Assembly (NCBI GenBank): GCA_002070955.1
Contig: MWEK01000002.1
Span: 27,956-91,955, forward strand
Source: Planctomycetes bacterium ADurb.Bin069
GTDB lineage: Bacteria; Planctomycetota; UBA8108; UBA8890; UBA8898
Direction of reading: 5' to 3'
Length of the DNA: 64,000 nucleotides
This document shows, piece by piece, positions 2,232-53,243 of this stretch. A model generated the notes under the pieces. It searched no databases and had not been told where the DNA came from. It worked only from the letters and a program-made list of their open reading frames with translations. The position numbers and the translations under genes are program-made. The stretch's first letter is position 1. Every line of letters starts with the position of its first letter.

Positions 2232-2327
2232 GGAGGTGGAGGGGTCCTGGTGGGCCTCCTGGACTTCAAATCCAGCGCGGGGCGAACTTAAGTCCCGGGT
2301 GGGTTCGATTCCCATGCACCTCCGCCA
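2232..2327 (+). tRNA. selC: tRNA-Sec (anticodon UCA), 96 nt including encoded CCA
   Basis: Anticodon stem CTGGA/TCCAG with loop CTTCAAA. D stem is 6 bp (GGGTCC/GGGCCT) with 4-nt loop TGGT. Long variable arm CGGGGC-GAACTTAA-GTCCCG. T arm GTGGG-TTCGATT-CCCAT. Extended acceptor GGAGGTG(G)/(G)CACCTCC, then G and CCA. It lies directly upstream of selB. Confidence 0.9.
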
Positions 2328-2352
2328 CTATTACCCCCGCGGCTCGAGCCCC

Positions 2353-10250: not shown

Positions 10251-10760
10251 TCACGTCCCTTTCCGGAAGCGGCTGAGGACCGCCGGCGAGCGGGACGCGG
10301 CGGGCGGCGTGTCCGCGGCGCCGGCCTTGGCGGCGCGGCTTCGCGACAACTCCTTGAGCAGGCCCGCGATCGAGCCCGGCGGGACGACGCGCAGGGGCAG
10401 CCGCGCGCCGAGGAGATCCCAGAGTTCCTCCCGCACGAGGGGCTCGGGCTCGCGCTCGCACGCCAGGACGACGCCCTCGGATGAGCGCAGGGGCAGCACG
10501 CCGTACCCCTCCAGAAGCTTCAGGGGAATTTTGCTGGCGTATTCCTCGGCGATGTGGTCGCGATCCACGACGAGTGCCGTCTGCGCGGCGAGGGCTCGGG
10601 CGATTTCCTCCGGCCCCGCCAGGCCCAGGCGCACGACGATGTCCCGGAGCAATCCGCCGACCGAGCGCTGATAATCCTCCACGACCCGCAGTTGCACCTC
10701 AGTCAGGATTCCCGCCTTGCGCAGCACCTGTCGGTCCAGTTGATCCTGTCGTTCGTGCAC
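10251..10760 (-). CDS. stand-alone T2SSE_N/MshEN domain protein
   Basis: GTG start at 10760. Tandem motifs LDRQVLRKAGILTEVQLRVVEDYQ and LLRDIVVRLGLAGPEEIARALAAQ, then IPLKLLEGYGVLPLRSSEGVVLACE, typical of the GspE/MshE N-terminal domain. No ATPase domain. Confidence 0.7.
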   Translation of the reverse strand: MHERQDQLDRQVLRKAGILTEVQLRVVEDYQRSVGGLLRDIVVRLGLAGPEEIARALAAQTALVVDRDHIAEEYASKIPLKLLEGYGVLPLRSSEGVVLACEREPEPLVREELWDLLGARLPLRVVPPGSIAGLLKELSRSRAAKAGAADTPPAASRSPAVLSRFRKGT

Positions 10761-10769
10761 GGCTCACCC

Positions 10770-11354
10770 TCACTCGATCTTGCCTTCGACCTCGACAAGG
10801 CGCAAAAACCGCACCGGCGCCAGTTCTTCCCCGCAGCGCGGACAGCGCCGCCCTTTCTCGGCCGCGCCGGACCCCACCTGGAAATGCGCGTCGCAGGGAG
10901 GGCAGCGCATGATTTCGCCGCGATGCCCGCGGAGCACGTCCCGGATCGCCTCGGCATCCGCGGCGCCTTGCGTTATCAGCACCTCTCCCAGGTGCATGTC
11001 AAGGTGCTTGCGCGCAAGCCGTTGCTTCTCCAGCACGGCATCCTCGAGCGCCGCCGGCGTCAGCCGGAGCTGGGTGCCCAAAATCTTCCTGAGCATGCGT
11101 TCCTCATCGCCTCTGGAGGCCGGCTTCGCGCGCTTGTCCTTCCTCCGGCGCTGGATCCGCGCGATCGCGCCCGCCGCCGCCTCGTCGAGATAGCCCCTCT
11201 CGAGCATGATGGCGGCGAGCGTGCGCTCGCCCCCCCCGCATTTCAGGGCCTGCAGGCACTCCCTGAGCTGCGGGTAGGAAACGACCCCGAGCGCGACGGC
11301 GGCGCGCGCGCAGACGTGATCCTCTGGCGATACGGTGTTGCGGCTCATGATCAT
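10770..11354 (-). CDS. MshEN-like helical repeat protein with C-terminal zinc ribbon
   Basis: ATG 11354 (MIMSRNTV...). Helical repeats such as TLAAIMLERGYLDEAAAGAIARIQ and HLGEVLITQGAADAEAIRDVLRGH. C-terminal CPPC-x17-CPRC. The rest of track ORF 10770..14765 is antisense shadow. Confidence 0.6.
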   Translation of the reverse strand: MIMSRNTVSPEDHVCARAAVALGVVSYPQLRECLQALKCGGGERTLAAIMLERGYLDEAAAGAIARIQRRRKDKRAKPASRGDEERMLRKILGTQLRLTPAALEDAVLEKQRLARKHLDMHLGEVLITQGAADAEAIRDVLRGHRGEIMRCPPCDAHFQVGSGAAEKGRRCPRCGEELAPVRFLRLVEVEGKIE

Positions 11355-11657
11355 GGCGGATCGGCGCACCGCGCTCCGGGGCGCATACGGCCCCCGGACC
11401 CGCCCGCCGGCGGCGGCGCCGGCGGGAGAATCCGCAAGCGCTTCGGCGGAACGCCGGTTCCTCCCCGTTCCAAGAATACGATGCGCTCGCGCCGTTTGCC
11501 AAAGCCGGAAGGGCCGGATAGACTTCAGCAGCCGATATCTGTCCATCCGATTGGCAGAGGGAAAACCTGCGGACGGCGCGGCGCGCGTGCACGGCCTGTT
11601 CGGTTCCGCGGCGCGGCGCGCTGCGGCGCGCGCCGGCTGCGCGCAGTGAAGGGTGCC

Positions 11658-20194: not shown

Positions 20195-20239
20195 CCCGCC
20201 GCGCGGCGGCGTCCGCACCCACGCCCTTGGTCGCGACAC

Positions 20240-21715
20240 ATGCACGCAGCTTCTTTCCTGGACACGGTCGCCCGCGCGCTCGGGGAACAAGGCCTGTGCG
20301 ACGGTGTGCGGCGGCTGCTGGTCGCCGTCTCCGGCGGCCGCGACTCGGTTGCGCTCCTGCTCGCGCTGCACGAGCTCCTGCGCGGCGCGACGGCGCTCAC
20401 CGTCGGACACGTCCACCACGGCCTGCGCGGGACGGAGGCCGACGCGGACATGGCCTTCACCGAGGAGCTCGCCGCCGCACGCGGCCTTCCCTTCGTCGCC
20501 GCCCGCGTCACGCTGCCGCGGCGGCCCGGCGCCCGCTCCTACGAAGCACCGGCCCGCGCCGCGCGTTACGAAGCCTTCGCACGCTGGGCCCGCGAGCTGG
20601 ATCTCGACGCCATCGCCACGGGCCACACCGCCGACGACCAGGTCGAGACGGTGCTGCTGCGCCTGCTGCGCGGCGCGGGCATCGCCGGACTCTGCGGCAT
20701 TCCCCCCGCGCGCCCCCTCGCCGGCGCCGCGGCGTGCCGCCTGATCAGGCCGCTGCTCGGCGTCACGCGCGCGGACACGACGGCGTTTCTAGCCGCGCGC
20801 GGGGCGCGTTTCCGCGACGATGCGTCCAATCTCGACGCGCGCATCCCGCGCAACCGCCTGCGGGCGGAGATCCTGCCCGTGCTGCGGGCGGGATTCAACG
20901 CGCGTCTCGACGCCGCCGTGCGGGGGTTGGCGGATGACGCCCGCGAGCTGACCGCGCGGGCGCGGGCTCAGGTTGCGCCCCTCCTGCCCCCCGGCGCGGG
21001 CTCGTTCGCGGCGCCGCGCGCGGCGCTCGCCGCCCTCTCTCCCGTTGCGCTGCACGAGCTCCTCGTCGCGGCCGCCGCGCGGCTCACCCGCCGGGGGGAT
21101 CGCCTCGCGCGGGCCCACGTGCGGACCGTGCGCGCCGTCATCGCGGGCACGCGCCGCAAGGCCGTGCTCCCCGGGGGCCTCGCCGTCGCCCGCGCCGGCG
21201 ACGGCGTGTTCTTCTCCTCCGGCGCGCCGGCCGGCGCGCCGCCGGAATGCGTGCTCGGCCTCGGCGCGCAGGCCGCATTCGGAGATTGGGTGCTGGCGTG
21301 TCTGCCCGCGGAGTCCGCCTCCGTCGAACCCGGCGGAAACGCCGGTCACACGGGGTTCCTCCGGGATGAAACGGTCGACGCCGACGCAGTCACGCCGCCG
21401 CTCATCGTGCGCGCGCGCCGGCCCGGCGACAGGTTCCGGCCGCTGGGCGCGCCGGGCCGCATCCGGCTCAAGGAGTTCTTCCGCGCCCAGGGCATCCCCG
21501 AGCAGATGCGCGGTTCGTGGCCCATCGTCTGCGCGGGCGAAGACGTCGTTTGGGTGCCGGGCCTGCGCATCGGCCAAAAAGCCCGACTCTCGCCCGCGAC
21601 CCGCCGCCGCCTCGCGCTGCGCATCGCCTGCGCGCCTGACGCGGTGCGGGCGCTGCTCGCGTCTCGATCGCCGGCCGGCGAGGACGCCTCTCTCGGAGGC
21701 GGAAACCTCTCGTAA
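20240..21715 (+). CDS. tilS: tRNA(Ile)-lysidine synthase
   Basis: PP-loop LLVAVSGGRDSVALLLAL, HTADDQVET, and a C-terminal substrate-binding region ending IVCAGEDVVWVPGLR. Confidence 0.85.
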   Translation: MHAASFLDTVARALGEQGLCDGVRRLLVAVSGGRDSVALLLALHELLRGATALTVGHVHHGLRGTEADADMAFTEELAAARGLPFVAARVTLPRRPGARSYEAPARAARYEAFARWARELDLDAIATGHTADDQVETVLLRLLRGAGIAGLCGIPPARPLAGAAACRLIRPLLGVTRADTTAFLAARGARFRDDASNLDARIPRNRLRAEILPVLRAGFNARLDAAVRGLADDARELTARARAQVAPLLPPGAGSFAAPRAALAALSPVALHELLVAAAARLTRRGDRLARAHVRTVRAVIAGTRRKAVLPGGLAVARAGDGVFFSSGAPAGAPPECVLGLGAQAAFGDWVLACLPAESASVEPGGNAGHTGFLRDETVDADAVTPPLIVRARRPGDRFRPLGAPGRIRLKEFFRAQGIPEQMRGSWPIVCAGEDVVWVPGLRIGQKARLSPATRRRLALRIACAPDAVRALLASRSPAGEDASLGGGNLS

Positions 21716-24278: not shown

Positions 24279-24421
24279 GGCTACCCCCTTTGCGGGGTGC
24301 GCTCACGAGGCAAGCGACACCCATTCATCCTTGTGTTGTGTTGTGACTACCTTGCTTCACCAGGCGGCGCGCGCGCGGCAACCCGTCGCGTGCGCGCCGG
24401 GAGACATATGTGAATAAGTCA

Positions 24422-24449
24422 AGTATACTTGCGACGAAATGCCTGTCAA
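24422..24449 (-). promoter_or_regulatory. near-consensus sigma70 promoter firing toward 24278
   Basis: Minus strand: TTGACA (24449-24444), 16 nt spacer, TATACT (24427-24422). The -10 element sits inside the 12-bp perfect palindrome CAAGTATACTTG (24420-24431), in a locally AT-richer stretch. Confidence 0.55.
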
Positions 24450-24530
24450 GCCAGCCGCTAAGCGCGGGCGCTGCGGCGGGTTACATGCGTCCGAGCCTGA
24501 ACGGCGCCCCATCCCCCTGTCCGGCGCCGG

Positions 24531-25493
24531 CTATCCCGCCCCCGACTCCAGCGCGCGGACTCCGCGCCCGGATCGGCACGGGAAACACGTCAGGCCGAGC
24601 AGCGCCGCTCCGGCGGCCCACGCACACAAGGCGGCCGCGCCCCGCGCGACGAAGCTCCAGGGCAAGACGGTGATATCGCCGTAGAAGAAGTCCCCTCCCC
24701 AGACGAGCTGGAAGTTCGGCACGAGCAGGCCGAGCGGGAGGGGGATCGCGTCCAGCACGGCGCCGAAGCTCTCCTTGACCTGGCCGAGCACGATGACAGC
24801 CCCGCCCGCGAGGATGCCGCAGGGGCGGCCGAGCAGCATGCTCCCGGACCAGACGGCGCTCAGGACCGCGAGCCCGGCGCAAAGGGTCAGAACCTCGGCC
24901 TGCAGAAGCAGGACATCGGCATCGCTCAACGCCGCGCGCAGGCCGCCGCCCGGCGCCCGCGCGAAAGCGACGCACGCCGCGGCGGCGCTCAGCACGCAAA
25001 GCGCCCCCAGCGCACCCGAGGAAAACGAACGCCCCCCGCGGAAACTGCGCCACGCCCCGGCGCCCAAGGCCAGCAACCCCGCGGCGGCGGCGTACACCCA
25101 GCTCTCGCCATCGAAGGCGAGGCCGGGCGCGTCCCTGAGCAGGACGGCGCCCATGCACGCGATCGCGGCGGCGGCGACCGCCCCGGCCAGGGCGGCGCCG
25201 GCCAAACCGCCCAGGAAGTACGCGGCCGGCCCGATCGGGCGCGTCATGACGAGAGCGCGCAAGGCGTCGCTCTCGCGCTGCGTTCCCGCCACCATGGCGG
25301 CGAGAATGCCGCCGAGGAAAATCGTCGAGAGCCCGATGTCCCGCACCAAGCCCTGTTGCTCGCGAAAGCCGAAAGCCGTCCCGAGCGGCGCCAAGGCCAG
25401 CAGGCACAGCGCCGCCAGAACCGCTACCAGGAGGGCGGGCTCCCGCAGCGCGCCTGCGAAACTCCGCCATGCGACCGCGCCGAAGGAGCGCAT
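24531..25493 (-). CDS. ABC-2 (NosY/COG1277-like) permease, operon gene 8
   Basis: ATG 25493 shares one base with the upstream stop (TGATG). Polytopic, with motif QRESDALRALVMTRPIGPAAYFLGGLAG as in ABC-2 permeases. Confidence 0.65.
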   Translation of the reverse strand: MRSFGAVAWRSFAGALREPALLVAVLAALCLLALAPLGTAFGFREQQGLVRDIGLSTIFLGGILAAMVAGTQRESDALRALVMTRPIGPAAYFLGGLAGAALAGAVAAAAIACMGAVLLRDAPGLAFDGESWVYAAAAGLLALGAGAWRSFRGGRSFSSGALGALCVLSAAAACVAFARAPGGGLRAALSDADVLLLQAEVLTLCAGLAVLSAVWSGSMLLGRPCGILAGGAVIVLGQVKESFGAVLDAIPLPLGLLVPNFQLVWGGDFFYGDITVLPWSFVARGAAALCAWAAGAALLGLTCFPCRSGRGVRALESGAG

Positions 25494-27013
25494 CACCCGG
25501 CCCTCCCCTTCGCGCGACCCCCGCGCGCGGGCGCAAGCTCCCGCCGCGCCTGGGCCGCGACTCGGTCGAAAGACGGAAACTCGGGGCCGGTGAAAACCGC
25601 GGCGGCTTCGCCGTAAAGTCCGCGGGCGAAGTCCAAGTACGTCCGCGCCCCGTCGTCCTCGCCGCGCGCCGCGGCCCGCAGCGCTTCCCGCAGAAAGGCG
25701 CGGATCACGGCGAGAAGCTCGTCCCTCGTGGCGCGCTCGACATTGACCTTCCGGTAGATCCAGTCGTAGACGTAGTCCTCGCAGGCGACGCGCGGCGTCC
25801 CCGCGGGATCGAGTTCCGCCAGCTTCGCGAAATGCTCTTCCGCAAGCTCCCGCCCCCGCCGCGTGCCGCTGATGTAGGCCAACGGGATCGCACCCTTCAG
25901 AAATTGAATCCGGTCTTCCAGAAACGAGGCCTCCTGCTTGCGGTGATAGGAGTCGCCGGCCGCGCGCGCGGCGGCCTCGGCATACTCCCGGTCGATGGCC
26001 GCGAGCAACGCGATCTCGCCGCTCTGAAAGAGGCGCGTCAGCGCGCGGAGTTCCATGCGCCACAGCGCGATCGCATCCAGCCTAACCGCATCGGGCGCCA
26101 GTTGCTCCAGCCCGTGCCGCGCCCAGAACAGGACGAAGCTCTCCGGGCGCAGCAGGCCGACATCGCCGAAGCGCCCGTGCGCTTTGGCGACGACGTCCAT
26201 GCCGACGCCGAAGGTCCTTCTCCACGCCCGCGCACGGAGCCCGCGATCGTACGCTTCCAGCAGGGGATCCTCGCGCAACGCCGCCGCCAGAGCATCGGCC
26301 GCATCCCCCAGGACGGCCTCGGGCGCCGCCCACAGAGCCGTCCACCCGCCCTCGACATCGCCCACCCCCAGCGCGGCCAGCGTTTCCGCGAAGCGCGCCA
26401 CCGCGGGATCGCGCCGCAGCGCGGGCAGCAAAGCCTCGGCCGCCGCGAACGCGGCGGGATCCCAGGGCTCGGCCCCGAGGATTTCGCGCCCCGCGCTCTC
26501 GACTTCCGCCCGGTACCGCGGGCCGGCCGCGTCGATTTCGCCGCCGATCTTGTACGCCCAGAACCACGCGATCTCCCAGTGCAGCCCCAGGCTGCGCGGG
26601 TTCGCGGCCAGCCCGTCGCGCCACAGGAGTTCCACGGCGGCGCGCACGTAGGGCCAACGCTCCTCGGGCGGCAGCGAAGAAGGCACGTTGACGCCGAGAT
26701 TCCAAGCCTGAAAGCTCCAGCTTCCCTCCACACGGCTCTGCAGCATGGTGATCCAACGCGCGGCCTCCGCCGCGGCGAAGAACCGGCCCTCGTTCTGAAG
26801 CGTCTCGGCGTGGATCCAGAGGTAGTCGACCAGCAGGGCGCGGAAGCTCCCCAGGAGCGTGCTCGCAAGCTGGACCGCCGGCGGCAGGGAATCGCCCCGC
26901 TGCCGCTCCATGCCGCTCTGCATGGCCGGCCGGCATGCGCGCGTCCCGCGTTCCAGCAGCGCCGCCGCGCCCAGCGCCGCGGCCGCGCACAGAAGCGCGA
27001 TCCCCCGGCGCAT
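25493..27013 (-). CDS. orphan exported/anchored helical protein (506 aa), operon gene 7
   Basis: ATG 27013 (MRRGIALLCAAAALGAAALL). Trp-rich helical region LVDYLWIHAETLQNEGRFFAAAEAARWITMLQ...WSFQAWNLGVNV...LHWEIAWFWAYKIGGE. I recognise no family. Confidence 0.6.
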   Translation of the reverse strand: MRRGIALLCAAAALGAAALLERGTRACRPAMQSGMERQRGDSLPPAVQLASTLLGSFRALLVDYLWIHAETLQNEGRFFAAAEAARWITMLQSRVEGSWSFQAWNLGVNVPSSLPPEERWPYVRAAVELLWRDGLAANPRSLGLHWEIAWFWAYKIGGEIDAAGPRYRAEVESAGREILGAEPWDPAAFAAAEALLPALRRDPAVARFAETLAALGVGDVEGGWTALWAAPEAVLGDAADALAAALREDPLLEAYDRGLRARAWRRTFGVGMDVVAKAHGRFGDVGLLRPESFVLFWARHGLEQLAPDAVRLDAIALWRMELRALTRLFQSGEIALLAAIDREYAEAAARAAGDSYHRKQEASFLEDRIQFLKGAIPLAYISGTRRGRELAEEHFAKLAELDPAGTPRVACEDYVYDWIYRKVNVERATRDELLAVIRAFLREALRAAARGEDDGARTYLDFARGLYGEAAAVFTGPEFPSFDRVAAQARRELAPARGGRAKGRAG

Positions 27014-27014
27014 C

Positions 27015-28343
27015 TCAACCCCTCTTTCCCAGCTCGCGCCGCCTGAAGAGGAGCCACGCGAGCACAAGCGCCCCTCCGCCGCGGAGCAGCGTGCCGTGGG
27101 CCGCGACGGCGGCCGCGGCGCCAAAACCGATCGTTCGGCCTTCGACGAGTTCGACGCCTGGATCGATGCCCCGCGTCGTCGGGATGACCGCCAGCATGCC
27201 GGCGACGGCCTTCTGCCAAACGGCCCGCAGCGCCGGCGGGAGCGGCTCGGGCACCGCCTCGCCGTGGGAGTGGCCGCGCGTTCCCGTGAACTGCGCCGCC
27301 GCCTCGCTCAGCATGTTCGCGCTGAGCGCCGCGAACACGATCACCGCGGCGGCGAGCGCGCTCACCGCGCGGGACAGGGTCGCGCCGGACAGGACCGTGA
27401 ACCCGCCCACCGCCGCCGTGAAAGCGAAAAAGAGCAGCCCGGCGCGGGCGAGGTTGGCGCCGAACCCGATCTCGGGCAGATAGAGAGCGAGGCCGTCCTC
27501 CGGCGGGAAGTAGACGAGGAGCTTCCGGTCGGCGGGCAGGGTGACGGTGAGACCGAGGGCGCCGTCGGGGCCGATCGCCGCGCCGGGCAGGCGGAACTCG
27601 CAGGCCACGCCGTTTTGAAGCTCGCGGCGCACGATCTCGGTTCCCGCCCGGAACTCAACCTCGGCCAGTTCCAGCGGCGGAAACACGCGGGCCTTGACGC
27701 GCACCCGCACGCCGCCTTCGCGCGGCCCCGCATCAGGCCACACGATCGTCGCGGACTGTCCCTCCGTGAGGCGCCAGACGGCCAGGCTCTCGCGAGCCAT
27801 GGCGGCGACGCCGTCGGCACCGTGCCGCTCCAGGAAGGCCGCGTCGCGGCCGAGCGCCTCGGCCAGCTCGCGCGCCCGGCCGGCGGAGACCGGCTTGGGG
27901 GGCGCCGGGCGCACGGCGCAGCCGGTGAGCGCCTCGGTCTCAATGCCGAGCCTGCGGGCGCACACGCCGGCGCCGGCGCCGATGACCGCGCAACCGGCGG
28001 CAAGCACGGCGCCGGTGATCAGCGCGCCGGCGCAGAACCGCGCCGCTATGAACGCCGCCCGCGGCACGGGCCGCGTGCCCAGCAGAAGCGCCTGCCGTCC
28101 GGCGCGCTCGGCGCCGAAGAAGCGCAGCGGCAGGTACGCGATCAGGCCCACGCTGAAGCCCGCCAACAGCAGCCACGCCGCCGTCACGTAGAACTTGAGG
28201 TTCGCCTCCTTCGGCCCCTCGGCGGCGACGGCGAAAGCGAGCCCGAGGATGCCGGCATAGACGGCGGCGCACGCCGCCGCCAGACCGCGGCTGCGGAGCG
28301 CCTGCCTCAGCGCCAGCCCTATGAGCGCGCCTGTGCCCCGCAT
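27015..28343 (-). CDS. ABC-2 (NosY/COG1277-like) permease with large extracytoplasmic insert, operon gene 6
   Basis: ATG 28343. N-terminal TMs with motif ERAGRQALLLGTRPVPRAAFIAARFCAG, a soluble insert of about 170 aa, then C-terminal TMs. Confidence 0.65.
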   Translation of the reverse strand: MRGTGALIGLALRQALRSRGLAAACAAVYAGILGLAFAVAAEGPKEANLKFYVTAAWLLLAGFSVGLIAYLPLRFFGAERAGRQALLLGTRPVPRAAFIAARFCAGALITGAVLAAGCAVIGAGAGVCARRLGIETEALTGCAVRPAPPKPVSAGRARELAEALGRDAAFLERHGADGVAAMARESLAVWRLTEGQSATIVWPDAGPREGGVRVRVKARVFPPLELAEVEFRAGTEIVRRELQNGVACEFRLPGAAIGPDGALGLTVTLPADRKLLVYFPPEDGLALYLPEIGFGANLARAGLLFFAFTAAVGGFTVLSGATLSRAVSALAAAVIVFAALSANMLSEAAAQFTGTRGHSHGEAVPEPLPPALRAVWQKAVAGMLAVIPTTRGIDPGVELVEGRTIGFGAAAAVAAHGTLLRGGGALVLAWLLFRRRELGKRG

Positions 28344-29095
28344 GGCCGGCCGCCTCCTTGGATCGCCGCCAGGAAGAAGTCCTCCAGCGAGCGCGCGGCG
28401 CCGCCCTCGCCCGCGAGAAGCTCCGCCCTCGCGCCCGCGCACAAAACCCGGCCCCGATCGAGGATCGCGAAGCTGTCCGCGACCTCCTCCACCTCGCCCA
28501 GGATATGGCTGGAAAGAAACACGGTCCGGCCCAGCCCCTTAAGACGCAGAAGGAGATCCATGACGCTCCGGGTGCCGAGGGGGTCCAGACCTACGGTCGG
28601 CTCGTCGAGAAAGAGCAGCTCCGGGTCGCCCACGAGGGCCTGCGCCAGACACAGCCGCCGCAGCATGCCCTTGGAGAACTCCGCCGCGGGACGGCGGGCC
28701 GCGGCGCGCAGATCCACCAGTTCGAGCAGGTGCTCGGCGCGCGCCTTCGCCTCGTGCCGCGGCAGCCCGCATAATCCGGCATGCAGAAGCAGCGTCTCCC
28801 GCGCCGTCAAGAAGCCGTGGAGGTACGATTCCTCGGGAAGATACCCGATGCGCCCTCTGACCCGAAGGTCGCCGGGCGCCCCGCCGAGCACGATCGCCCG
28901 CCCCGCCGTCGGCGCCAGCAGCCCGAGGCAGATCTGCATGAGGGTCGACTTGCCCGCGCCGTTCCGCCCCAGCAGCGCAAAGATCTCGCCGCGGCCCACC
29001 GCCAGATCGACGTCCGCGAGGGCGCACACCCGCGGCCTTCCCCAGAAGTCCCGGAAGATCTTGCGCACGCCGGCCAGTTCAAGGACGTTCGCCAT
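28319..29095 (-). CDS. ABC transporter ATP-binding protein (NosF/CcmA-like)
   Basis: Walker A GRNGAGKSTL, Q-loop, signature-like FSKGMLRR, Walker B LLFLDEPTVGLD, H-loop SSHIL. Confidence 0.9.
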   Translation of the reverse strand: MANVLELAGVRKIFRDFWGRPRVCALADVDLAVGRGEIFALLGRNGAGKSTLMQICLGLLAPTAGRAIVLGGAPGDLRVRGRIGYLPEESYLHGFLTARETLLLHAGLCGLPRHEAKARAEHLLELVDLRAAARRPAAEFSKGMLRRLCLAQALVGDPELLFLDEPTVGLDPLGTRSVMDLLLRLKGLGRTVFLSSHILGEVEEVADSFAILDRGRVLCAGARAELLAGEGGAARSLEDFFLAAIQGGGRPCGAQARS

Positions 29096-30944
29096 CGCCG
29101 CGCTCGCTCGCCAGCCGTGCGCTGGACAGGAGCACCGCCAGCGCGCCCGCGTTCTGGACGATGGCCGCGGCCACCGGGCTCAGGTGCCCGAAGGCGGCCA
29201 GAAACATGCCGCAGACGATGAGCCCGCCGCCGATGACGAGGTTCTGCGCGGCGACGGCGCGGCTTCTGCGCGCGAGGGCGACCAGCGCCGTGATGCCCCG
29301 CAGATCGCTCCTGAGCAGCGCCACGTCGGCGCTCTCGATCGCGACCTCGTTGGTGCCCGATCCCACCGCCGCCGAAAGATCCCCCGCCGCCAGCGCCGGC
29401 GCGTCGTTGACGCCGTCGCCCGCCACGAGGACGCGGTGCCCTTCCTCCCGCAGGCGCCGCACGAAAGCGAGCTTCTCGTCGGGGAGGCACTCGGCGATGA
29501 ACTCGTCAATGCCCACGTCCGCCGCGGTGCGCTCCGACACTTCGCGCCGGTCGCCCGTCAGCATGACGATGCGGCCGACACCCGCGGCCCGGAGCGTCTC
29601 GATGGCGGCCCGCGCCTCGGGGCGCGCGCGGTCTTCCAAGGCGAAGGACCCCGCCAAGCTCCCGCCCACCGCGACGGCCAACGCCGAGAATCCGCGCAAC
29701 TCCTCCTCGAAGGGCGCCGGCCCGCCCAGGTCGACGCCCGCCTGGGCCAGGAATTCCGGCCGCCCGAGACGCACCTCGCGGCCGCCGACGGCGCCCACGA
29801 GCCCCCGTCCGGGCTCTTCGCGGACATCGCGCGCCTCGGGAAGCGCGATGCCGCGTTCGTGAGCGTACGCGCTCAGCGCCCGCGCCACGGGGTGCTGCGA
29901 CATCCGCGCCACGGCCGCGCCGTGGGCCACCACCGCTTCCTCCGCCCACGGCTCTCGCGCGAGGGCTCGCACGACGCGCAGCTCGCCGCAGGTCAGCGTG
30001 CCCGTCTTGTCGATGACCAGCGCCGAAACGCCGGCGGCGGTCTCCAGGCTCTGGGGCTTCTTGACAAGGATGCCGTTCCGCGACGCGCAGGCCAAGGCCG
30101 CCACGGCGGCGCTCGGCCCCGCGATGACGAGGGCCACCGGGCAGGCGGCGACGATGGTGCTGATCGCCCGGCCCCAGTCCTCGCTGAGCAGCAACACCAG
30201 GGCGGCCAGCATTATGACGACGGGCGGATACCAGCCCACCACGCGTTCCAACGCCCCGGCGAGGCGGGGCTTCGCCTTCCGCGCCTCGACGATGAGCCCC
30301 CGCACCCTGGCGAGCGTCGTGTCCTCGCCGACTTTGTCGATGCGCACGTCAAGCGCGCCGGTCAGGTTCAGCGTTCCGGCGTAGACCGGATCGCCCGGGG
30401 CCTTGTCGGCGGGCATGGCCTCGCCCGTGACCGAGGCCTCGTTCACCGCCGAGGCGCCGCGCTCGATGACGCCGTCGGCCGGCACCGCATCGCCGGGCAG
30501 GACTTTCACCCGTTCGTCCACCGCGAGATCCTGAACGGGAACCAGGTCCCACCCGCCGTCGCTCCGCAGCCGGCGGGCCGTCTTGGGAGCCAGCGCGCCC
30601 AGCGCCTCGACCGCCGTCAGGGCCCCCGAGGCGGTATGCTCCTCGAGCGCGAGGGCGCCCAGCATGAGGAGCGCCACGACGCCGGCGGTCAGATAATCGC
30701 CGAGGGCGAAACACGCCACCGCGGCCAGCGCGACGAGTTCATCGAGCCGGCGCTCGGGGCCCCGCAGGTTGCGCACCGCCCTGACGCACAGCAGCCCCGC
30801 GCACAGGACGGCGCCCGCGAGGCTCGCGAACTCCCCCGCGGCGCTTGAAACCCCGGCGCGCCCGATGAAGAAACCGTTCAGCAGCAGCGCCGCGCCCAGA
30901 GCGGCGGCCAGACGGGCGCGGCGGCGCGAGGGCCGGGCGCTCAT
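29079..30944 (-). CDS. P-type (P1B-like) cation-transporting ATPase without N-terminal metal-binding domain
   Basis: ATG 30944 overlaps the upstream stop as ATGA. Motifs VTGEAMP (TGE), AACPVAL in TM6, VIDKTGTLT, MLTGDRRE and GDGVNDAPAL. Confidence 0.9.
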   Translation of the reverse strand: MSARPSRRRARLAAALGAALLLNGFFIGRAGVSSAAGEFASLAGAVLCAGLLCVRAVRNLRGPERRLDELVALAAVACFALGDYLTAGVVALLMLGALALEEHTASGALTAVEALGALAPKTARRLRSDGGWDLVPVQDLAVDERVKVLPGDAVPADGVIERGASAVNEASVTGEAMPADKAPGDPVYAGTLNLTGALDVRIDKVGEDTTLARVRGLIVEARKAKPRLAGALERVVGWYPPVVIMLAALVLLLSEDWGRAISTIVAACPVALVIAGPSAAVAALACASRNGILVKKPQSLETAAGVSALVIDKTGTLTCGELRVVRALAREPWAEEAVVAHGAAVARMSQHPVARALSAYAHERGIALPEARDVREEPGRGLVGAVGGREVRLGRPEFLAQAGVDLGGPAPFEEELRGFSALAVAVGGSLAGSFALEDRARPEARAAIETLRAAGVGRIVMLTGDRREVSERTAADVGIDEFIAECLPDEKLAFVRRLREEGHRVLVAGDGVNDAPALAAGDLSAAVGSGTNEVAIESADVALLRSDLRGITALVALARRSRAVAAQNLVIGGGLIVCGMFLAAFGHLSPVAAAIVQNAGALAVLLSSARLASERGDGERP

Positions 30945-32026
30945 TGGGTCGGCTCCTTTCCGCCGCCGTCCGCCGCCGGCGCGAGCCGGTACTTGAAGTT
31001 CCGCCCTTCGCTCGTCGAAGCGAGCGGCCGGATATCGGCCCGGGCGAAGGCTCGGGCGCAGGCCTCGAGGATGAGGCGTCCCCGCAGCGAGCCGTCCCGC
31101 GCCATCGCGGCGGCGAGCTCGCGGGCCCGCGTCGCGTCCCGCCGGGCGCGCCCGAGGATCCGCCCGGCTTCGTTCTGCGCGGCGTTGACGATTTCGATGG
31201 CCCGCGCGGCCGCATCGGCCCCGCGCGCCGCGCACTCCTTCCGCGCCTCGGTGAAGGTCGCGAGGGCCGCGCTGGCCGCGTTCTGAGCCTTCACGAAGGC
31301 CTCCTCGACCTGGCGCGGCTCCCGCGGCCGCGCGACCGGCGAGATCTGCTGAAGCGCCAGTCCGCGCGCCGCCAGAAGCGGCGCGAGCTGCGCCTCGATG
31401 CGCCCGAAGTACTCGGCCTTGCCGCCGGACGCCTCATCCGTCGAGAGCAGGCGCACGGACAGCGCATTCCGCAGAACCGCCTCCGCCAGCAGCGTCTTGA
31501 CGAAAGCCCGCTCCCGGGCAAGATCGGCCTCGCGTCCCGCGCCGAAGTTGGCGTAGTAGCGCGCGCAGTCGCCCACGCGCCAGTCCGCGCGCACCTTCAG
31601 GTGCAGGATGGCGCCGTCGCCGCACAAGACGTAGCCGTCGCGGCCGGGCCTGAGGGATGGCGCCGCCGAGCGGCGCCGCAGGGCGCGCAGTTGATCCTCC
31701 GCTTCCTCCTTGTACCAGAACGAATCGGTAGTCGCCTGCCTGATCTCCTGGACGGGGATGATAACCCGCGCGCCCAGCGGCGGCGGCAGCGTCAAGTGCG
31801 TGCCGGATCTGTAAATCCGCGGCGCACCGTCGGGTTCCCGCGCGAGCCGTCCCAGGTTCAAGACCAGCGCCTCGTGCCCGTCGGGCACGACACACAGGCC
31901 CGACGCCACGTACAGCACGAGGCCCGCCCCCAGGCAGATCTTGAGCACCCGCAGCGTCACGCCGAGCGCAGCGGCGAGGGCGCGAGCGGGGCGCGAGGCG
32001 GCTCCGGGGTCCGTGGGGGCCTTCAC
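30941..32026 (-). CDS. SPFH/band-7 protein, HflK-like, operon gene 3
   Basis: GTG 32026 overlaps the upstream stop as GTGA. N-terminal TM, then CVVPDGHEALVLNLGRL...GDGAILHLKVRADWRV...VEEAFVKAQNAASAALATFTEA..., an HflK-like layout. Confidence 0.7.
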   Translation of the reverse strand: MKAPTDPGAASRPARALAAALGVTLRVLKICLGAGLVLYVASGLCVVPDGHEALVLNLGRLAREPDGAPRIYRSGTHLTLPPPLGARVIIPVQEIRQATTDSFWYKEEAEDQLRALRRRSAAPSLRPGRDGYVLCGDGAILHLKVRADWRVGDCARYYANFGAGREADLARERAFVKTLLAEAVLRNALSVRLLSTDEASGGKAEYFGRIEAQLAPLLAARGLALQQISPVARPREPRQVEEAFVKAQNAASAALATFTEARKECAARGADAAARAIEIVNAAQNEAGRILGRARRDATRARELAAAMARDGSLRGRLILEACARAFARADIRPLASTSEGRNFKYRLAPAADGGGKEPTQ

Positions 32027-32967
32027 CGCCGTTCCTCCGTTCCGGCGGCCCCGCCCGCGCCCGCCGGCGCCAGTTCCTTGAGAAGATCGAGGGGCGGAGT
32101 GTTCAGGTCCCAGACGATGGTCGTCGGCCCAGCGAACACCTCCTCGAGCGCCGTGAGTCGATCCAGGAAGGCCAGCAGATCTTTGTTGTCGACCGCGGCG
32201 AGCACGCCCGCCGCCTCGGCCTTGGCCTTGGCCGCGATTTCGCCCGCCCGGGTGCGGGCCTCGGCCAAGCTGCGTTCGTAATCGCGCTGCGCCTCCGCCT
32301 TGATCTTGCGCGCCTGGGCATCGCCCTCGGATTGGATGCGCGCCGCATCGCGTTCCTTGGCCTGGCGCATCTGAGCGAACACGCCCTCGGCCGCCTTCTC
32401 GGGCAGGACGAGTTGGTGGAAGCCCGCGGCGACGATCTCGATGCCGTAGGCCCCCAACGGCTCCCTGAGCAGGCGCGCGATCTCGGTCTCGATTTTCTCC
32501 AACTCCCCCGCGGCGCCGCCGCCCGACTGGGCGGGCGGCGCTTGCGTCAGCGCCGCGTAGCGGTGGCGCGCCAGCACGTCGTTGACGCCGCTGCGCAGCG
32601 CGCCGCCGATGAGCGGTTCCGCGGCCGCCTCCCGGCCCATGACCGCCTCGTGAAAGGCGCGCGGATCGCCGACACGCCACAGGACGAAGACGCCCGCCAC
32701 GACAAGCTGCCCGTCCGCCGTGCTCGCCTCCTCCAGGCCGCCCTCGAAGATCCGCTCGCGCATGTCGTAGCGGTACACCTTCTCGATGGGCCAAGGCCAC
32801 GTCAGATGCACCCCCGCGTCCCGCGGCGCCGCCAGCACGCGCACCGGGCTTCCGAATCGCACCGAGAGGGCGCCCTCGCCCTCGTGCAGGACGAAGGTCA
32901 CCGCGTAGATCGCCGCGGCCGCGACGACGGCCGACGCGCCGAGAATCCGTGGAAGCCGCGTTTTCAC
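32023..32967 (-). CDS. SPFH/band-7 protein, HflC-like, operon gene 2
   Basis: GTG 32967 overlaps the upstream stop as GTGA. TM, then FVLHEGEGALSVRFGSPV...VVAGVFVLWRVGDPRAFHEAV...GIEIVAAGFHQLVLPEKAAEGVFAQMRQAKERDAARIQSEGDAQA. Confidence 0.75.
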   Translation of the reverse strand: MKTRLPRILGASAVVAAAAIYAVTFVLHEGEGALSVRFGSPVRVLAAPRDAGVHLTWPWPIEKVYRYDMRERIFEGGLEEASTADGQLVVAGVFVLWRVGDPRAFHEAVMGREAAAEPLIGGALRSGVNDVLARHRYAALTQAPPAQSGGGAAGELEKIETEIARLLREPLGAYGIEIVAAGFHQLVLPEKAAEGVFAQMRQAKERDAARIQSEGDAQARKIKAEAQRDYERSLAEARTRAGEIAAKAKAEAAGVLAAVDNKDLLAFLDRLTALEEVFAGPTTIVWDLNTPPLDLLKELAPAGAGGAAGTEERR

Positions 32968-34802
32968 CGTTCTTCTCCCCCCGCGATCGGCAGGCGCCGA
33001 ACCTCGCCCGTATCCACCTCGAAAACCTCCGACCCGCCCGGCGCATCCGGCAGGATCAGCTTCGGCCGCGCGCCCGCGGCCTTGGCCAACGCCTCGAAAG
33101 CCATGCGCGGGCGCAAAATCGCGCCGAGCGCCTCCCAGAACGGCGCCAGTTCGCGCGCCGTGCTCGCGGCGGCCGCGCCGCGGGCTCTCGCGCGCAGGGC
33201 CTCGGCCTCGGCCTCGGCGGCGAGGACCTCGCCCTCGTACCGCGCCAACGCCCCGAGACGGATCCGTTCGGTCTCCGCGCCCACGATCTCCGCCTCGACC
33301 ACGGCGCGCAGCCGCGTCAAATCCTCGAAGGCCGGCCCCACTTCGGCGGGCATGTGGGCGCACTCGATCGCCGCGCAGCGGACCAGCACGCCGTAAGGCG
33401 CGGCGCGCTCCTTGAGGCCTTCCGTCAGGCGCCGCCCGAGGGCGGCCCGTTCCGGCGCAAAGAACGCCCGCGGGTCGGTCGCGGCCGCGATGTGGACGAG
33501 TTCCCGCCGCAGGAGCGCTTCCACGACGGCCTCAGGCCGCGCCGCCGTGTAAGCGAACGCCGCCGGATCGGCCACCGAGAACTGCACGGAAGCCGTCAGG
33601 GCGAGGAGCCCCTTGGCCTCGGCGCTCTCGCCCCACGCCGGCGTCAGGAGGCGCAGCTCCTTGCCGTGCTCCGTATCCCACAGATGCACGCCGGCCTCGT
33701 GCGCGTGGGCGCCGCTCTCCTCTCCGCCCTTCCGGCCCTCGCCCGCGAGGACGACTCTCACCAGGCTCGTGTCGACGGGGCGCAGGCGTTCGACGGGCCA
33801 GGGCAGCTTCAGGGAGACGCCGGGAGGTCGGACCGCGCCGCGCCGGGCTCCCCAGCGCTCGACAAGCGCCGCGCGTCCGGGCTCGACCCACGCGATGCAG
33901 GAAAGCAGCAGGAAGATCGCGCCCGCCAAAAGCAGGAAGGGCAGCGCGCCGTCCAGCAGCGCGCGCCGCACCGAAGCGCCGCTCGCGGTGATGCCGAAAT
34001 TGTACGCCAGCGCCTCGCGCGCCCGGCGCAATACGCCCGCGGGCGCGCCGACCAATTCCACCAGGCGGCTTCTCCCGGGGGCCGGCTCGTGTTTGCCCAG
34101 CCCGTACGCCCGGCCGAGGAACGCCGCGGCCTTCTCGAGGGCCAGCGCCGCGAACCACCACGGCGCGAACCTATCCGCCAGGGCGGGAGCGCCCGCCCAA
34201 GCCGCGTGCCCGGCGGCGCAGACCAACCCCGCGGCGAAGGCCAGAATCCCTCCCCCCGCCAGCCACGCCGCCGCCGGAGCCAGGGGCCGAAAGGCCTCGC
34301 TCTCGCTCACCGCCGCCAGGTAGCGGCCCCCGACGTACGCCGCCGCAGCAAGCACGCCGAGAAAGGGGACCGCGACGACCGGCTGCGCGGTCGCGCCCGG
34401 CGCGGCGATGAAGAAACGCCATGCAATGAGGCCGGCGGCGGCCAGAAGCACGCCATCGGCCGGCGGCCCCAGCCGCCGCGCCGCCTGCGCGCGCTGTTCC
34501 GCGGGCGCGGCCCGCGCCACGCCGCTGAAGAGGCTTTCACCGCCCGTGCGCAAAGCGAGCGCCGCATCCTCGTCGGCGCGCTCGGCGCTGACGCGGAAGG
34601 CGCGGAACTGCGCGTAAGCGGCGAGCGCCGGGACGGCAGCCAGCAGAAAGTGCCACGCGAGGCCCGCCAGCGCGGCGCTCGCGAGCGCCGCGCCGAGCAC
34701 GTGCACGCCCACCCCCGCCGCGCAGGCAAGCCCGGCGACAAGCAGCGCGGCCCCTTCGCCGCGGCGCTCGATGCCTTTGGTCATGCTGGCGGGTGCGGAC
34801 AT
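32964..34802 (-). CDS. polytopic membrane protein with C-terminal SPFH domain (612 aa), operon gene 1
   Basis: ATG 34802 (alternative 34784). About 7 hydrophobic helices in the first 330 aa, then WVEPGRAALVERWGARRG...LKLPWPVERL...ALTASVQFSVADPAAF...GVLVRCAAIECAHMPAEVGPAFEDL, which is SPFH-like. Confidence 0.7.
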   Translation of the reverse strand: MSAPASMTKGIERRGEGAALLVAGLACAAGVGVHVLGAALASAALAGLAWHFLLAAVPALAAYAQFRAFRVSAERADEDAALALRTGGESLFSGVARAAPAEQRAQAARRLGPPADGVLLAAAGLIAWRFFIAAPGATAQPVVAVPFLGVLAAAAYVGGRYLAAVSESEAFRPLAPAAAWLAGGGILAFAAGLVCAAGHAAWAGAPALADRFAPWWFAALALEKAAAFLGRAYGLGKHEPAPGRSRLVELVGAPAGVLRRAREALAYNFGITASGASVRRALLDGALPFLLLAGAIFLLLSCIAWVEPGRAALVERWGARRGAVRPPGVSLKLPWPVERLRPVDTSLVRVVLAGEGRKGGEESGAHAHEAGVHLWDTEHGKELRLLTPAWGESAEAKGLLALTASVQFSVADPAAFAYTAARPEAVVEALLRRELVHIAAATDPRAFFAPERAALGRRLTEGLKERAAPYGVLVRCAAIECAHMPAEVGPAFEDLTRLRAVVEAEIVGAETERIRLGALARYEGEVLAAEAEAEALRARARGAAAASTARELAPFWEALGAILRPRMAFEALAKAAGARPKLILPDAPGGSEVFEVDTGEVRRLPIAGGEER

Positions 34803-35064
34803 ATCTGCCGGCGATTCTCTCTTCCTGCGCGCCGCTGCGGGCGCGAGCCAAAGCCCCCGGCGCGCTCCGGACAGCCGGGCGCGCCCCGGCCGCGAAGGCG
34901 CGGTCTCCCCACGTTATATCGGAAATCCGCGCGAATCATGCGCAGAGCGCCGCCGTGCGCCGCGCGGATCCATCGCTCCCGGCGCGGCGCGGGTTACCGG
35001 ACCACCGCCTCAAGAAAAGACGGCGGCGGGCGTCGGACGTTGCAGCGCGGGTGTGGATTGCGGG

Positions 35065-35877
35065 CTACCGCTGGAGATACGTCGCGACCTCGCGCCACGT
35101 GGCCTCGGCCTGAGCGCCGAGTTCACGCTCCGCCATGCCCCGCGCGAAGGCGCCGAAGACTCCCTCGACCTGGCGGATCCACGTGTAAAGCTGAACCGTC
35201 AAAACGGGAGGAGCCCCCGCCGCCAGGTGATAGACGTTCATCCCGGCGACGTACTGGCCGGACACGTGGAAGTGGATTTCGACCAGCCAGGCTTCGGTCT
35301 CGGCGGCGCCTCGGCGCAAGTCGGCGAGGGCCAGAATCGTACGGCTCCCGCTCGTGAACACCGTGACGCCGAGCGCGCTTCCCGGATCGCCCGCGAGCAC
35401 GCCAATGCCCGGCGGCGTGTGCTTCCACGCCTCGTCAAGCAGCGCATGCGTTTCACGGAACCGCGCCGGCGCCCCCTGCTGCCAGGCCGCGAGGGCCGCC
35501 ACGGCCGCATCGGGCGCCGTCCCCGCCTTTGCGCAGGCTTCGCGCAACACGGCCGCGGGGTCATCGTCGGAACGGATCTGCCGCGCGTACACGGTGCCGG
35601 ACTGCGCCTCGACCAGGTCGGACCACGCGCCGATCCGAACCGCCGCGGTCTCGAAGGACACGGGCAGCGCGCCCACGGCCTGCGCCGCCGCGATGCCGCC
35701 CGTGTGCGCCGGCAGGGGCGCGACGCGGATCGAGCCTTCGTCCGGTTTCGGCGCGCTCCTGCAGCCGGAGACGAGCGCGAGCGCCGCGAGGGCGGCGGCG
35801 GCCCCTGCGCCTCGGGCTAAGGCGGCTCTTCCGCGCAAACGGCGGATTCCTGCGTCACACACGGATCGCGGCGCCAA
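35065..35877 (-). CDS. hypothetical lipoprotein
   Basis: The track start 35877 is TTG; GTG 35862 is also possible. AAALAALALVSGCRSAP gives a lipobox. I recognise no family. Confidence 0.5.
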   Translation of the reverse strand: MAPRSVCDAGIRRLRGRAALARGAGAAAALAALALVSGCRSAPKPDEGSIRVAPLPAHTGGIAAAQAVGALPVSFETAAVRIGAWSDLVEAQSGTVYARQIRSDDDPAAVLREACAKAGTAPDAAVAALAAWQQGAPARFRETHALLDEAWKHTPPGIGVLAGDPGSALGVTVFTSGSRTILALADLRRGAAETEAWLVEIHFHVSGQYVAGMNVYHLAAGAPPVLTVQLYTWIRQVEGVFGAFARGMAERELGAQAEATWREVATYLQR

Positions 35878-35882: not shown

Positions 35883-35972
35883 CTAATACGTCCTCTTTTT
35901 GCCGTGCTTCGGCTTGCGGGTATCGTGCTTGTTGCGCTTGCCCGCTCCGCGGCGGCGTCCTTTCTTGGCCAT
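35883..35972 (-). CDS. 29-aa Arg/Lys-rich microprotein (not in ORF track)
   Basis: My translation: MAKKGRRRGAGKRNKHDTRKPKHGKKRTY then TAG. ATG 35972 follows AGGAGA at 6-nt spacing. Confidence 0.45.
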   Translation of the reverse strand: MAKKGRRRGAGKRNKHDTRKPKHGKKRTY

Positions 35973-46096: not shown

Positions 46097-46183
46097 GGCG
46101 CTCCGGGACGGCGCGCGGCGCGCCGTCCGACTCGCGGCCGGCCGGCGCTCGCGGCGAACGCCTCCGGCCGCGGGAGAATAAAA

Positions 46184-46260
46184 GGCCGCACATAGAAGCG
46201 GACCTGCCGTGGCTGCTCCCTTTCGGGCCTGACCAGATCAACAGCGCCCCTATTGCGGCC
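46184..46260 (-). ncRNA. ffs: small (4.5S-type) signal recognition particle RNA
   Basis: Minus strand reads GGCCGCAATAGGGGCGCTGTTGATCTGGTCAGGCCCGAAAGGGAGCAGCCACGGCAGGTCCGCTTCTATGTGCGGCC. The core GGUCAGGCCC-GAAA-GGGAGCAGCC matches the conserved domain IV (E. coli GGUCAGGUCCGGAAGGAAGCAGCC). The closing helix is GGCCGCA/TGCGGCC. It is followed by TTTTATT and lies upstream of dnaX, as in many bacteria. Confidence 0.85.
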
Positions 46261-46274
46261 TTTTTTTTCGTGAC

Positions 46275-46365
<91 letters not shown>

Positions 46366-46474
46366 TCGCAGCCTCGCCGCGCGGCCGCGACGCGCCCCGA
46401 AGCCCGGGAACGCGTCTCACGGCATTGTATCTCCGGGCCGCGAAACGGCAAGCCCGCGGGCGCCGCAAAAAAAC

Positions 46475-46566
46475 TGGCGGAGAGAGAGGGATTCGAACCC
46501 CCGGTGCCCAGTCAAGGGCACACCGGTTTTCGAAACCGGCCCGTTCAACCGCTCCGGCATCTCTCC
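46475..46566 (-). tRNA. tRNA-Ser (anticodon CGA), 92 nt with CCA
   Basis: Minus strand reads GGAGAGATGCCGGAG...CCGGT-TTCGAAA-ACCGG..., with a long variable arm, ...GGGGGTTCGAATCCC..., then TCTCTCC, G and CCA. Confidence 0.9.
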
Positions 46567-52996: not shown

Positions 52997-53243
52997 CGAG
53001 AGGCTCCTCGTCCTCCAAACCTCGATTGTACCACAGCGCCGGCGGCGGACGCGGCGCCGCGGTAAAGGCTTGCGCGCCCTGGGATTGTTGTCGGGCGCCC
53101 GCGGGCGAAGACGCGGGTCCCCAGCGGAACACGCCCCCCCGGGGAGGCCGCCGGGCCCTTCCCCGCGGCCCCGCGGCGCCCTTGCATAACGGGCCGCGCC
53201 GGAATTATCTTGATAGGCGCGCCGCCGCCTTTGAGGATCACGC

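Follow-up and report, generated by a model that had tools for sequence, protein, structure and literature searches.

Eight consecutive minus-strand genes of Planctomycetes bacterium ADurb.Bin069 (24531-34802) probably encode one undescribed membrane machine, which combines three proteins of the SPFH (Band_7) family with a P1B-type P-type ATPase, an ABC-2 exporter and a protein of no recognized family. The genes lie in a 64,000-nt stretch of assembly GCA_002070955.1 (contig MWEK01000002.1, 27,956-91,955), here called the window, and coordinates are given as positions in this stretch. In operon order they encode the SPFH proteins S1 (612 aa), S2 (314 aa) and S3 (361 aa), the P-type ATPase (621 aa, referred to as the pump), an ABC ATPase (258 aa), a large permease P' (442 aa), an orphan protein G7 (506 aa) and a small permease P (320 aa). 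In the reading that we favor, and to which we give about an even chance, an HflK/C-like hetero-oligomer of the three SPFH paralogues would be the scaffold of the P1B-type pump, and of the ABC-2 exporter and G7 as well in Planctomycetota. A preliminary description of this DNA had recognized no known system of this kind; our literature search likewise found no description of the cluster, and in a 2009 survey of SPFH operons in prokaryotes, ABC and ATPase partners go unmentioned. The gene combination appears to be new, in contrast to its component families and to the notion of an SPFH scaffold with clients, both of which are known.

Organization of the operon

The eight open reading frames (ORFs) tile the locus, with an overlap or a 1-nt gap at each of the seven junctions (Table 1). 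S2 and S3 both start with a GTG placed over the stop codon of the preceding gene (GTGA at 32964-32967 and 32023-32026, respectively), and S3 and the pump are joined by ATGA (30941-30944). The pump and ABC ATPase genes overlap by 17 nt (29079-29095), and the ABC ATPase and P' genes by 25 nt (28319-28343). P' and G7 are separated by a single nucleotide at 27014 (TGA-G-ATG), and the start of P lies over the stop of G7 in the sequence TGATG (25491-25495). Shine-Dalgarno-like GGAG or AGGAG sequences precede most of the starts, and other gene callers begin S1 at Met7, giving a protein of 606 aa. All seven junctions agree exactly with those listed in the preliminary description, which nevertheless put the orphan gene last in the operon, when it actually lies between the two permease genes.

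The gap upstream of the operon, earlier given as 260 nt, exists and measures 262 nt. It is presumed to hold the promoter; no sigma-70-like promoter matches on the minus strand within it, and no riboswitch or other RNA element precedes the operon at Rfam gathering thresholds, either in the window or in seven related loci. The near-consensus sigma-70-like promoter noted previously on the downstream side (TTGACA-16-TATACT, 24449-24422 on the minus strand) is there, past the last stop codon of the operon, and the genes beyond this boundary are unrelated hypotheticals and a PQQ-type propeller gene.

Table 1. Genes of the SPFH-transporter operon and its boundary features (positions in the window).
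Feature	Positions	Strand	Remarks
S1, 612 aa: polytopic N-terminal domain, SPFH/Band_7 domain, coiled-coil tail	32964..34802	-	
S2, 314-aa HflC-like SPFH protein, one N-terminal transmembrane helix	32023..32967	-	
S3, 361-aa HflK/C-like SPFH protein, one N-terminal transmembrane helix	30941..32026	-	
P1B-type P-type ATPase (pump), 621 aa, without HMA domain	29079..30944	-	
ABC ATPase, 258 aa	28319..29095	-	
P', 442-aa ABC-2 permease paralogue with insertion	27015..28343	-	
G7, 506-aa orphan	25493..27013	-	
P, 320-aa small ABC-2 permease	24531..25493	-	
Non-coding gap 5' of the operon, 262 nt, presumed promoter region	34803..35064	-	
Near-consensus sigma-70-like promoter, TTGACA-16-TATACT	24422..24449	-	11/12 match; 3' boundary of the unit

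Conservation of the gene set

Related loci were collected from two seeds, and their ORFs were labeled with phmmer and with iterated hidden Markov models built from the eight proteins of the window. A genome scan seeded with G7, with one genome per species, gave 124 confirmed loci, of which 80 were kept. The named ones belong to Planctomycetota (with the labels Pirellulales, Phycisphaerae, Sedimentisphaerales, Planctomycetales and Kuenenia), Verrucomicrobiota or Kiritimatiellia, and the nearest among the 80 is that of Planctomycetes bacterium UBA4800 (87% identity). Fifty-three loci are informative, having at least 8.5 kb of sequence upstream of G7, and in 49 of them the SPFH trio directly precedes the ABC ATPase module. 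The pump is seen in 40 of these 49, either in the position it has in the window, after the trio and before the ABC ATPase (25 loci), or just upstream, past a divergent small permease (15 loci); in the other nine it is not seen, mostly as the fetched flank ended. The four informative loci without SPFH genes are all from Verrucomicrobiota or Kiritimatiellia.

A second scan queried metagenomes with the N-terminal domain of S1, and gave 30 informative loci with at least 10 kb downstream. The pump is adjacent in 29 of the 30 and the ABC module is present in 25. The order S1-S2-S3-pump-ABC-permease-G7 occurs in 23, and in two more the ABC module is present but the pump lies elsewhere or was not seen. 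Five loci, two of them near-identical, contain small permease-S1-S2-S3-pump alone, followed by unrelated genes (e.g. for pyruvate formate-lyase or diacylglycerol kinase). Gene order shifts from locus to locus and the linkage stays: the small permease may be divergent, co-directional or last, and the pump internal, upstream or first. This survival of the linkage through rearrangement and among different flanks is a stronger argument than the counts. Co-occurrence in related genomes, on which the preliminary description had staked its proposal of a hard-wired unit, is thus found from both seeds and across orders.

Genes near the cluster were also considered as possible further components. UvrD, PGI and NTP transferase genes downstream and GNAT, FabA and KAS genes upstream were rejected as a ninth conserved gene, being housekeeping lineage synteny; the UvrD-PGI-nucleotidyltransferase arrangement follows the cluster in about 28 loci. 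In three relatives an ECF (energy-coupling factor)-type Ni/Co uptake cassette (DUF4198-CbiM-CarboxypepD_reg-CbiQ-ABC) comes right after the cluster (L001:12872-14268, L006:5403-8700). It was likewise discarded as a part of the system, as it is confined to close relatives and absent from distant loci and from the window, where 24279-24530 leads directly into the hypothetical and PQQ-propeller genes found behind the cassette in other genomes.

Two separable modules

The cluster consists of two modules, Module A comprising the pump with S1, S2 and S3, and Module B comprising the ABC ATPase, P, P' and G7. Module A occurs alone outside the Planctomycetota-Verrucomicrobiota-Chlamydiota (PVC) group, in the complete genome of Desulfosarcina alkanivorans (Desulfobacterota, AP021874.1, 2,626,395-2,632,423; L168:8130-14158), where overlapping genes in the order pump-S1-S2-S3 are found with neither an ABC module nor G7. 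The S1 homologue there has 669 aa (by profile search), and the pump shares CPC and the M6 His with the cluster pumps described below. A PilZ gene and a gene for a 188-aa unknown protein lie just 5' of this module.

Module B in turn occurs behind a rhomboid protease gene in five out of five Verrucomicrobiota/Kiritimatiellia loci with upstream sequence (L046, L049, L053, L058 and L064), in the order rhomboid protease-small permease-ABC ATPase-large permease-G7 (e.g. L049:5763-11296). The ORFs of these loci overlap or abut, with a 4-nt overlap between rhomboid and permease in four of the five. The rhomboid, which has intact GASGG and His catalytic motifs and a C-terminal DUF6576, takes the place held by the SPFH genes in Planctomycetota. 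Since Module A is found alone and Module B with a rhomboid, the two are separable, and in most Planctomycetota they are fused. The hard-wired unit proposed earlier therefore holds in that the adjacency is not due to chance, but it is made of two separable modules rather than one indivisible block of eight genes.

The SPFH trio

All three SPFH proteins match Band_7 (PF01145) above the Pfam gathering cutoff of 23.6 bits (S1 42.0, S2 72.7 and S3 41.5 bits), in agreement with the preliminary description. The domain spans residues 306-512 of S1 and is found in 22 of 22 S1 orthologues. Their scores against the NCBIfam models fall well short of the equivalog cutoffs for hflK (TIGR01933, 159.4) and hflC (TIGR01932, 134.4). 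S2 is the most HflC-like of the trio, with hflC as its nearest NCBIfam model (83.0 bits), so that the earlier HflC-like label for this protein is appropriate below equivalog level. S1 scores 38.9 bits against hflK, and the nearest solved chain to its SPFH domain is HflK (7vhp_E). S3 had been called HflK-like, but it is equidistant from the two models (27.3 bits for hflK and 26.3 for hflC), both far under their cutoffs.

S1, the signature gene of the system, differs from its two partners in having about seven transmembrane (TM) helices ahead of the SPFH domain, as predicted by TM scan. This N-terminal domain has no Pfam match in the 22 orthologues. A relationship to rhomboids was rejected (hhalign probability 0.9%, GxSG not conserved in the alignments), as was one to ABC-2 permeases (hhalign probability 1.4%). 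The orthologue alignment contains a conserved loop before the last TM helix (YRPR..RPAFDSRLLG..YQFGFEVS), which is degenerate in the window copy. Lys and Arg residues average 2.32 before TM1 and 0.50 after it in S1 orthologues, which would place the N-terminus inside. S2 and S3 have basic (Lys/Arg) N-termini followed by a single TM helix, as in HflC and HflK. With S1 N-in and crossing the membrane about seven times, and S2 and S3 crossing once, all three SPFH domains are predicted to be periplasmic, and the conserved S1 loop cytoplasmic.

The P-type ATPase

The preliminary description of the 621-aa protein as a P-type ATPase without an HMA domain is accurate. It matches E1-E2_ATPase and Hydrolase in Pfam and has no Pfam match to HMA, and it belongs to the P1B heavy-metal class according to NCBIfam (TIGR01525, 478.5 bits against a cutoff of 346.25; also TIGR01512, 401.2 bits against 313.5). 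The catalytic motifs VIDKTGTLT, SVTGEAMP and AGDGVNDAPAL are intact, so that by DKTGT, TGE, GDGxNDxP and a TIGR01525 score above cutoff the window pump fits the P1B type. Its nearest solved chains are LpCopA (3rfu, 1e-80) and sCoaT (7qbz, 3e-72).

The cluster-associated pumps form one distinct family, marked by CPC in TM4 and a His in M6. TM4 reads CPC in 70 of 82 non-redundant sequences, with CPS in 9, CPV in 2 and FPC in 1, and the M6 His is present in 79 of 83. About half of the full-length cluster pumps also carry a His-containing N-terminal motif, often MAHEHLH. The best solved match of a canonical member is the P1B-4 ATPase sCoaT (7qbz, 1.5e-102), and because this is the nearest structure and the M6 His aligns with the His of the sCoaT HEGS motif, the family can be called P1B-4-like. 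A 2026 review quotes SPC in TM4 and HEGxT in M6 as the motifs that define P1B-4 (PMC13460109). The cluster pumps depart from both, with CPC in TM4 of the family and CPV in the window, and an M6 other than HEGxT of which the family shares the His alone, absent from the window copy.

The pump in the window is a derived variant, in which one TM4 Cys remains. It shares with its clade (the window, L001 and L006) the CPV in TM4, a Gln-Asn in M6 (Q-N-A-G in the window, where the family norm is His) and the absence of a His-rich N-terminus. The loss of the second TM4 Cys and of the M6 His makes a metal role less secure for this copy. The link to metals drawn in the preliminary description is to this extent weaker for the window pump.

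The ABC exporter

The 258-aa protein is an ABC ATPase, as stated earlier (ABC_tran, PF00005, 101.1 bits, cutoff 25), and is nearest to the DrrA/NodI/GldA group (TIGR01188 drrA, 200 bits, below the NCBIfam cutoff). ATPases of this group pair with ABC-2 permeases. Most orthologues are longer (335-395 aa, e.g. L010:7422-8609 and L035:7216-8223), owing to a C-terminal extension without Pfam match that the window copy does not have.

The two permeases are recognizable as ABC-2 proteins through their relatives. In the window, P' has no Pfam match, and P reaches 18.7 bits against a cutoff of 26.9 for ABC2_membrane (PF01061). ABC2_membrane_2 (PF12679) is matched by 20 of 24 P' orthologues, and P orthologues match PF12679 or PF12730. 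The P' and P families are related over their whole length (hhalign probability 99.2%, E = 4e-19), and this profile alignment identifies them as paralogues. The ABC-2 identity of the window permeases follows from the PF12679 matches of P' orthologues together with the hhalign relationship of P' to P; the earlier call of two ABC-2 permeases is upheld by orthology and profile-profile comparison, but not by Pfam scores of the window copies. P has about six TM helices, and in most other genomes its gene stands upstream of S1, unlike in the window. Relative to the P family, P' has an inserted segment of some 170 aa following TM3, which would be periplasmic given the ABC-2 topology. We propose that P and P' form a heterodimeric exporter with the ABC ATPase.

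The preliminary label of a NosF/NosY-like module is justified at the superfamily level only. No Nos genes occur in any locus, NCBIfam gives no Nos match, and NosY (7o0y_D), the only PDB profile match to the permease, is not significant (E = 1.6). No conserved Cys, His or Met stands out in the P' family alignment.

The orphan protein G7

The preliminary description had been unable to place the 506-aa protein, and G7 is indeed without a match in Pfam, NCBIfam or the PDB sequences, its 25 orthologues included. Its N-terminal TM helix is followed by another conserved helix, in which F57, R58, D63 and W66 are invariant, and then by an all-alpha solenoid. The AlphaFold2 (AF2) model is all helical, with a pLDDT (predicted local distance difference test) of 82.5, and Foldseek returns nothing specific for it (weak TPR/HAT-like matches, E >= 0.007, TM-score <= 0.22). 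Weak TPR matches occur also in the orthologues (TPR_14 in two of 25 and TPR_17 in one). Of the two sides of TM1, the loop that follows is the more basic one (2.7 vs 1.8), and helix 2 is borderline hydrophobic, a pattern that favors a two-TM hairpin with a periplasmic solenoid. Trp, Asn, Arg, Asp and Tyr make up most of the invariant positions; two His, H164 and H293, are near-invariant, with no Cys, His or Met otherwise prominent. The family is large, with 2,455 clusters at 50% identity at E <= 1e-3 and 830 at E <= 1e-30. It was seen in this analysis only in PVC bacteria, to which all named records among the 80 genome loci belong.

Proposed mechanism and alternative explanations

In the mechanism we envisage, S1, S2 and S3 would co-assemble into a hetero-oligomeric, periplasm-facing cage that fences a patch of the inner membrane, as HflK and HflC do. 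The pump would be the resident client of the fenced patch, joined in Planctomycetota by the ABC-2 exporter with G7, and in most members of the family it would move a divalent transition metal outward. The polytopic domain of S1 and its conserved cytoplasmic loop could tether or regulate the pump, and the gene coupling may reflect a fixed stoichiometry within a scaffolded microdomain. A bolder version, which we hold only tentatively, posits a closed SPFH cage with transporters, not a protease, as obligate residents. The pump, and in Planctomycetota the exporter with G7 as its adaptor, would then discharge into a fenced periplasmic nanocompartment, and the 7-TM domain and loop of S1 would be a new regulatory subunit of P-type ATPases. 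If true, it would be the first case of an SPFH cage devoted to transport or to handing over substrates.

Several observations weigh against this mechanism. The physical association of the components is deduced from the genes, and the counts overstate the number of independent observations because many loci share the UvrD-PGI flanks and belong to one clade. As the modules are separable, the ABC-2 exporter need not share a complex with the pump. Metal transport by the window pump is uncertain in view of its CPV and Gln-Asn motifs and the absence of a His-rich N-terminus, and the lack of prominent Cys, His or Met residues in G7 or P' argues against a metal-handling role for Module B. Finally, the AF2 model of the S1 N-terminal domain, from a 4-sequence alignment, has a pLDDT of 40.8, leaving the tethering role without structural support.

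The trio may instead serve quality control centered on a protease, modulating a membrane protease (FtsH in this lineage and a rhomboid in the sister phyla) with the pump and exporter as its substrates or as helpers that extract damaged membrane proteins. The classical partners of SPFH complexes are membrane proteases, FtsH in the case of HflKC; S2 and the SPFH domain of S1 are nearest to HflC and HflK, respectively; FtsH is encoded in the window; and in Verrucomicrobiota/Kiritimatiellia the ABC/G7 module is translationally coupled to a catalytically intact rhomboid at the very position of the SPFH genes. However, neither the Planctomycetota loci examined nor Desulfosarcina have a protease gene in or beside the cluster, S2 and S3 are far under the HflC and HflK equivalog cutoffs, and the most constant partner of the trio is a P-type ATPase. 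We regard this explanation as unlikely. We judge no more probable the proposal that the core of the system is Module B, an envelope exporter of a lipid, glycan or lipid-linked polymer, with the SPFH proteins and pump as lineage-specific accessories that organize or condition the membrane. Such substrates are the typical cargo of ABC-2 (type V) exporters, and the proposal fits the proximity of the ATPase to the DrrA, NodI and GldA groups, the conserved residues of G7 and the P' family, which are mostly not metal ligands, and the presence of Module B in Planctomycetota, Verrucomicrobiota and Kiritimatiellia alike. Against it, no glycosyltransferase or lipid-synthesis genes are consistently adjacent, and Module A exists without Module B, so the trio and pump must be more than its accessories.

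The neighborhood census effectively excludes both fortuitous adjacency in a compact genome and a mobile resistance or defense island, which together we consider very improbable. Each component family is common on its own, and the Ni/Co uptake cassette next door in close relatives is reminiscent of a metal island. The linkage nevertheless recurs across classes and phyla with differing flanks and gene orders, the cassette is absent from the window, the G+C content of the window is uniform (~70-74%), and no transposase or integrase is found among the flanking genes scanned. PADLOC gives no specific match to an anti-phage defense system, reporting generic ABC ATPase similarity for the 258-aa protein and nothing for the other seven products.

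The scaffold reading matters because the roles of bacterial SPFH proteins beyond HflK/C-FtsH are largely open, and comparative genomics here names genetically linked clients: nearly always a P1B-type pump, to which Planctomycetota add an ABC-2 exporter. The idea of a membrane microdomain thereby becomes a testable complex, with cultivable carriers in Desulfosarcina alkanivorans and Poriferisphaera sp. The analysis also defines a large unannotated family (G7) and a distinct pump family (CPC and M6 His), and the exchange of rhomboid and SPFH genes before the same ABC module hints at a shared role in the care of membrane proteins or the envelope.

Relationship to known systems

The nearest structural model is the HflK/HflC-FtsH complex of E. 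coli (7vhp, 7wi3 and 9cz1), from which the model of a cage around a client is taken. In this complex too, SPFH paralogues are anchored in the membrane by an N-terminal TM helix and extend into the periplasm with their SPFH domain and coiled coil. In contrast, the present cluster encodes three paralogues instead of two, one with an extra domain of ~7 TM helices, at scores far below the equivalog models, and genetic linkage points to a P-type ATPase and an ABC-2 exporter as clients instead of FtsH, which is encoded 26 kb away. SPFH proteins are also coupled to a membrane partner, genetically or physically, in stomatin-NfeD operons and in the mitochondrial PARL-SLP2-YME1L complex. The exchange of rhomboid and SPFH genes before Module B echoes the rhomboid-SPFH association, but the Planctomycetota cluster contains no NfeD, ClpP-type protease or rhomboid. 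The rhomboid sequence used as a query gave a single distant match, in L038 and far downstream of the cluster.

In function, Module A is most closely paralleled by the PacL-Ctp effluxosomes of Mycobacterium tuberculosis, whose dedicated scaffolds stabilize P1B pumps and gather them into membrane platforms (PMC13460109). Both have the gene of a P1B-type pump beside that of a membrane scaffold, a putative one in Module A. However, PacL is a small single-TM protein (DUF1490/DUF6110) and not an SPFH protein, neither domain occurs among the eight proteins of the operon, CtpC has been described as P1B-6-like where the present pumps are P1B-4-like, and PacL-Ctp has no ABC-2 module.

Compared with the P1B-4 ATPases (sCoaT, 7qbz; Co/Zn/Cd exporters), the cluster pumps resemble the type in lacking HMA and in the alignment of their M6 His with that of HEGS. 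They differ in having CPC (CPS in 9) rather than SPC in TM4 and H-F/V-x-G/S-S rather than HEGxT in M6, with CPV and Q-N in the window copy. The NosDFY(L) system (7o0y) has in common with Module B permeases of the same broad ABC-2 family (PF12679/COG1277-type), a single ABC ATPase and a partner that faces the periplasm, as predicted for G7. Unlike NosDFY(L), Module B has no NosD, NosL or NosZ neighbors, its permease is putatively heterodimeric with an inserted domain, the match of NosY to the permease profile is not significant (E = 1.6), and its partner is a predicted alpha-solenoid instead of a beta-helix.

Flanking genes and other features of the window

FtsH is encoded at 60875-62809, about 26 kb from the operon as noted earlier, and ftsH is not adjacent to the cluster in any related locus examined. 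It is followed on the minus strand by a folP-like pterin-binding gene (59996-62809 for the pair), and no second hflK/hflC pair is visible near it. The housekeeping context further includes tilS (20195-21715, plus strand) and a small signal recognition particle (SRP) RNA with two tRNAs (46176-46566, minus strand).

The gene next to the operon on its upstream side (35065-35877, minus strand) encodes a protein of 270 aa with a lipoprotein-like signal (LVSGC), for which Pfam gives no match; only the closest two relatives have kept it. It is preceded by an extremely basic ORF of 29 aa (35883-35972, minus strand; MAKKGRRRGAGKRNKHDTRKPKHGKKRTY). This small protein is identical in L001, where the neighboring proteins are ~83% identical, and differs by one residue in L005, whose genome is ~76% identical, so that its conservation is far above that of its neighbors; it may be a ribosome-associated small protein.

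A tRNA-Sec gene at 2232-2323 (plus strand, 77 bits) implies selenoprotein synthesis in the organism. Because it overlaps the 5' end of the stop-to-stop frame at 2218-4272, the true start of that frame must lie further downstream. Two giant proteins are also encoded in the window, one of 1389 aa with DUF4388, TPR and a PQQ-type beta-propeller (10485-14654, plus strand) and one of 1355 aa with a lamin-tail domain (49352-53419, minus strand).

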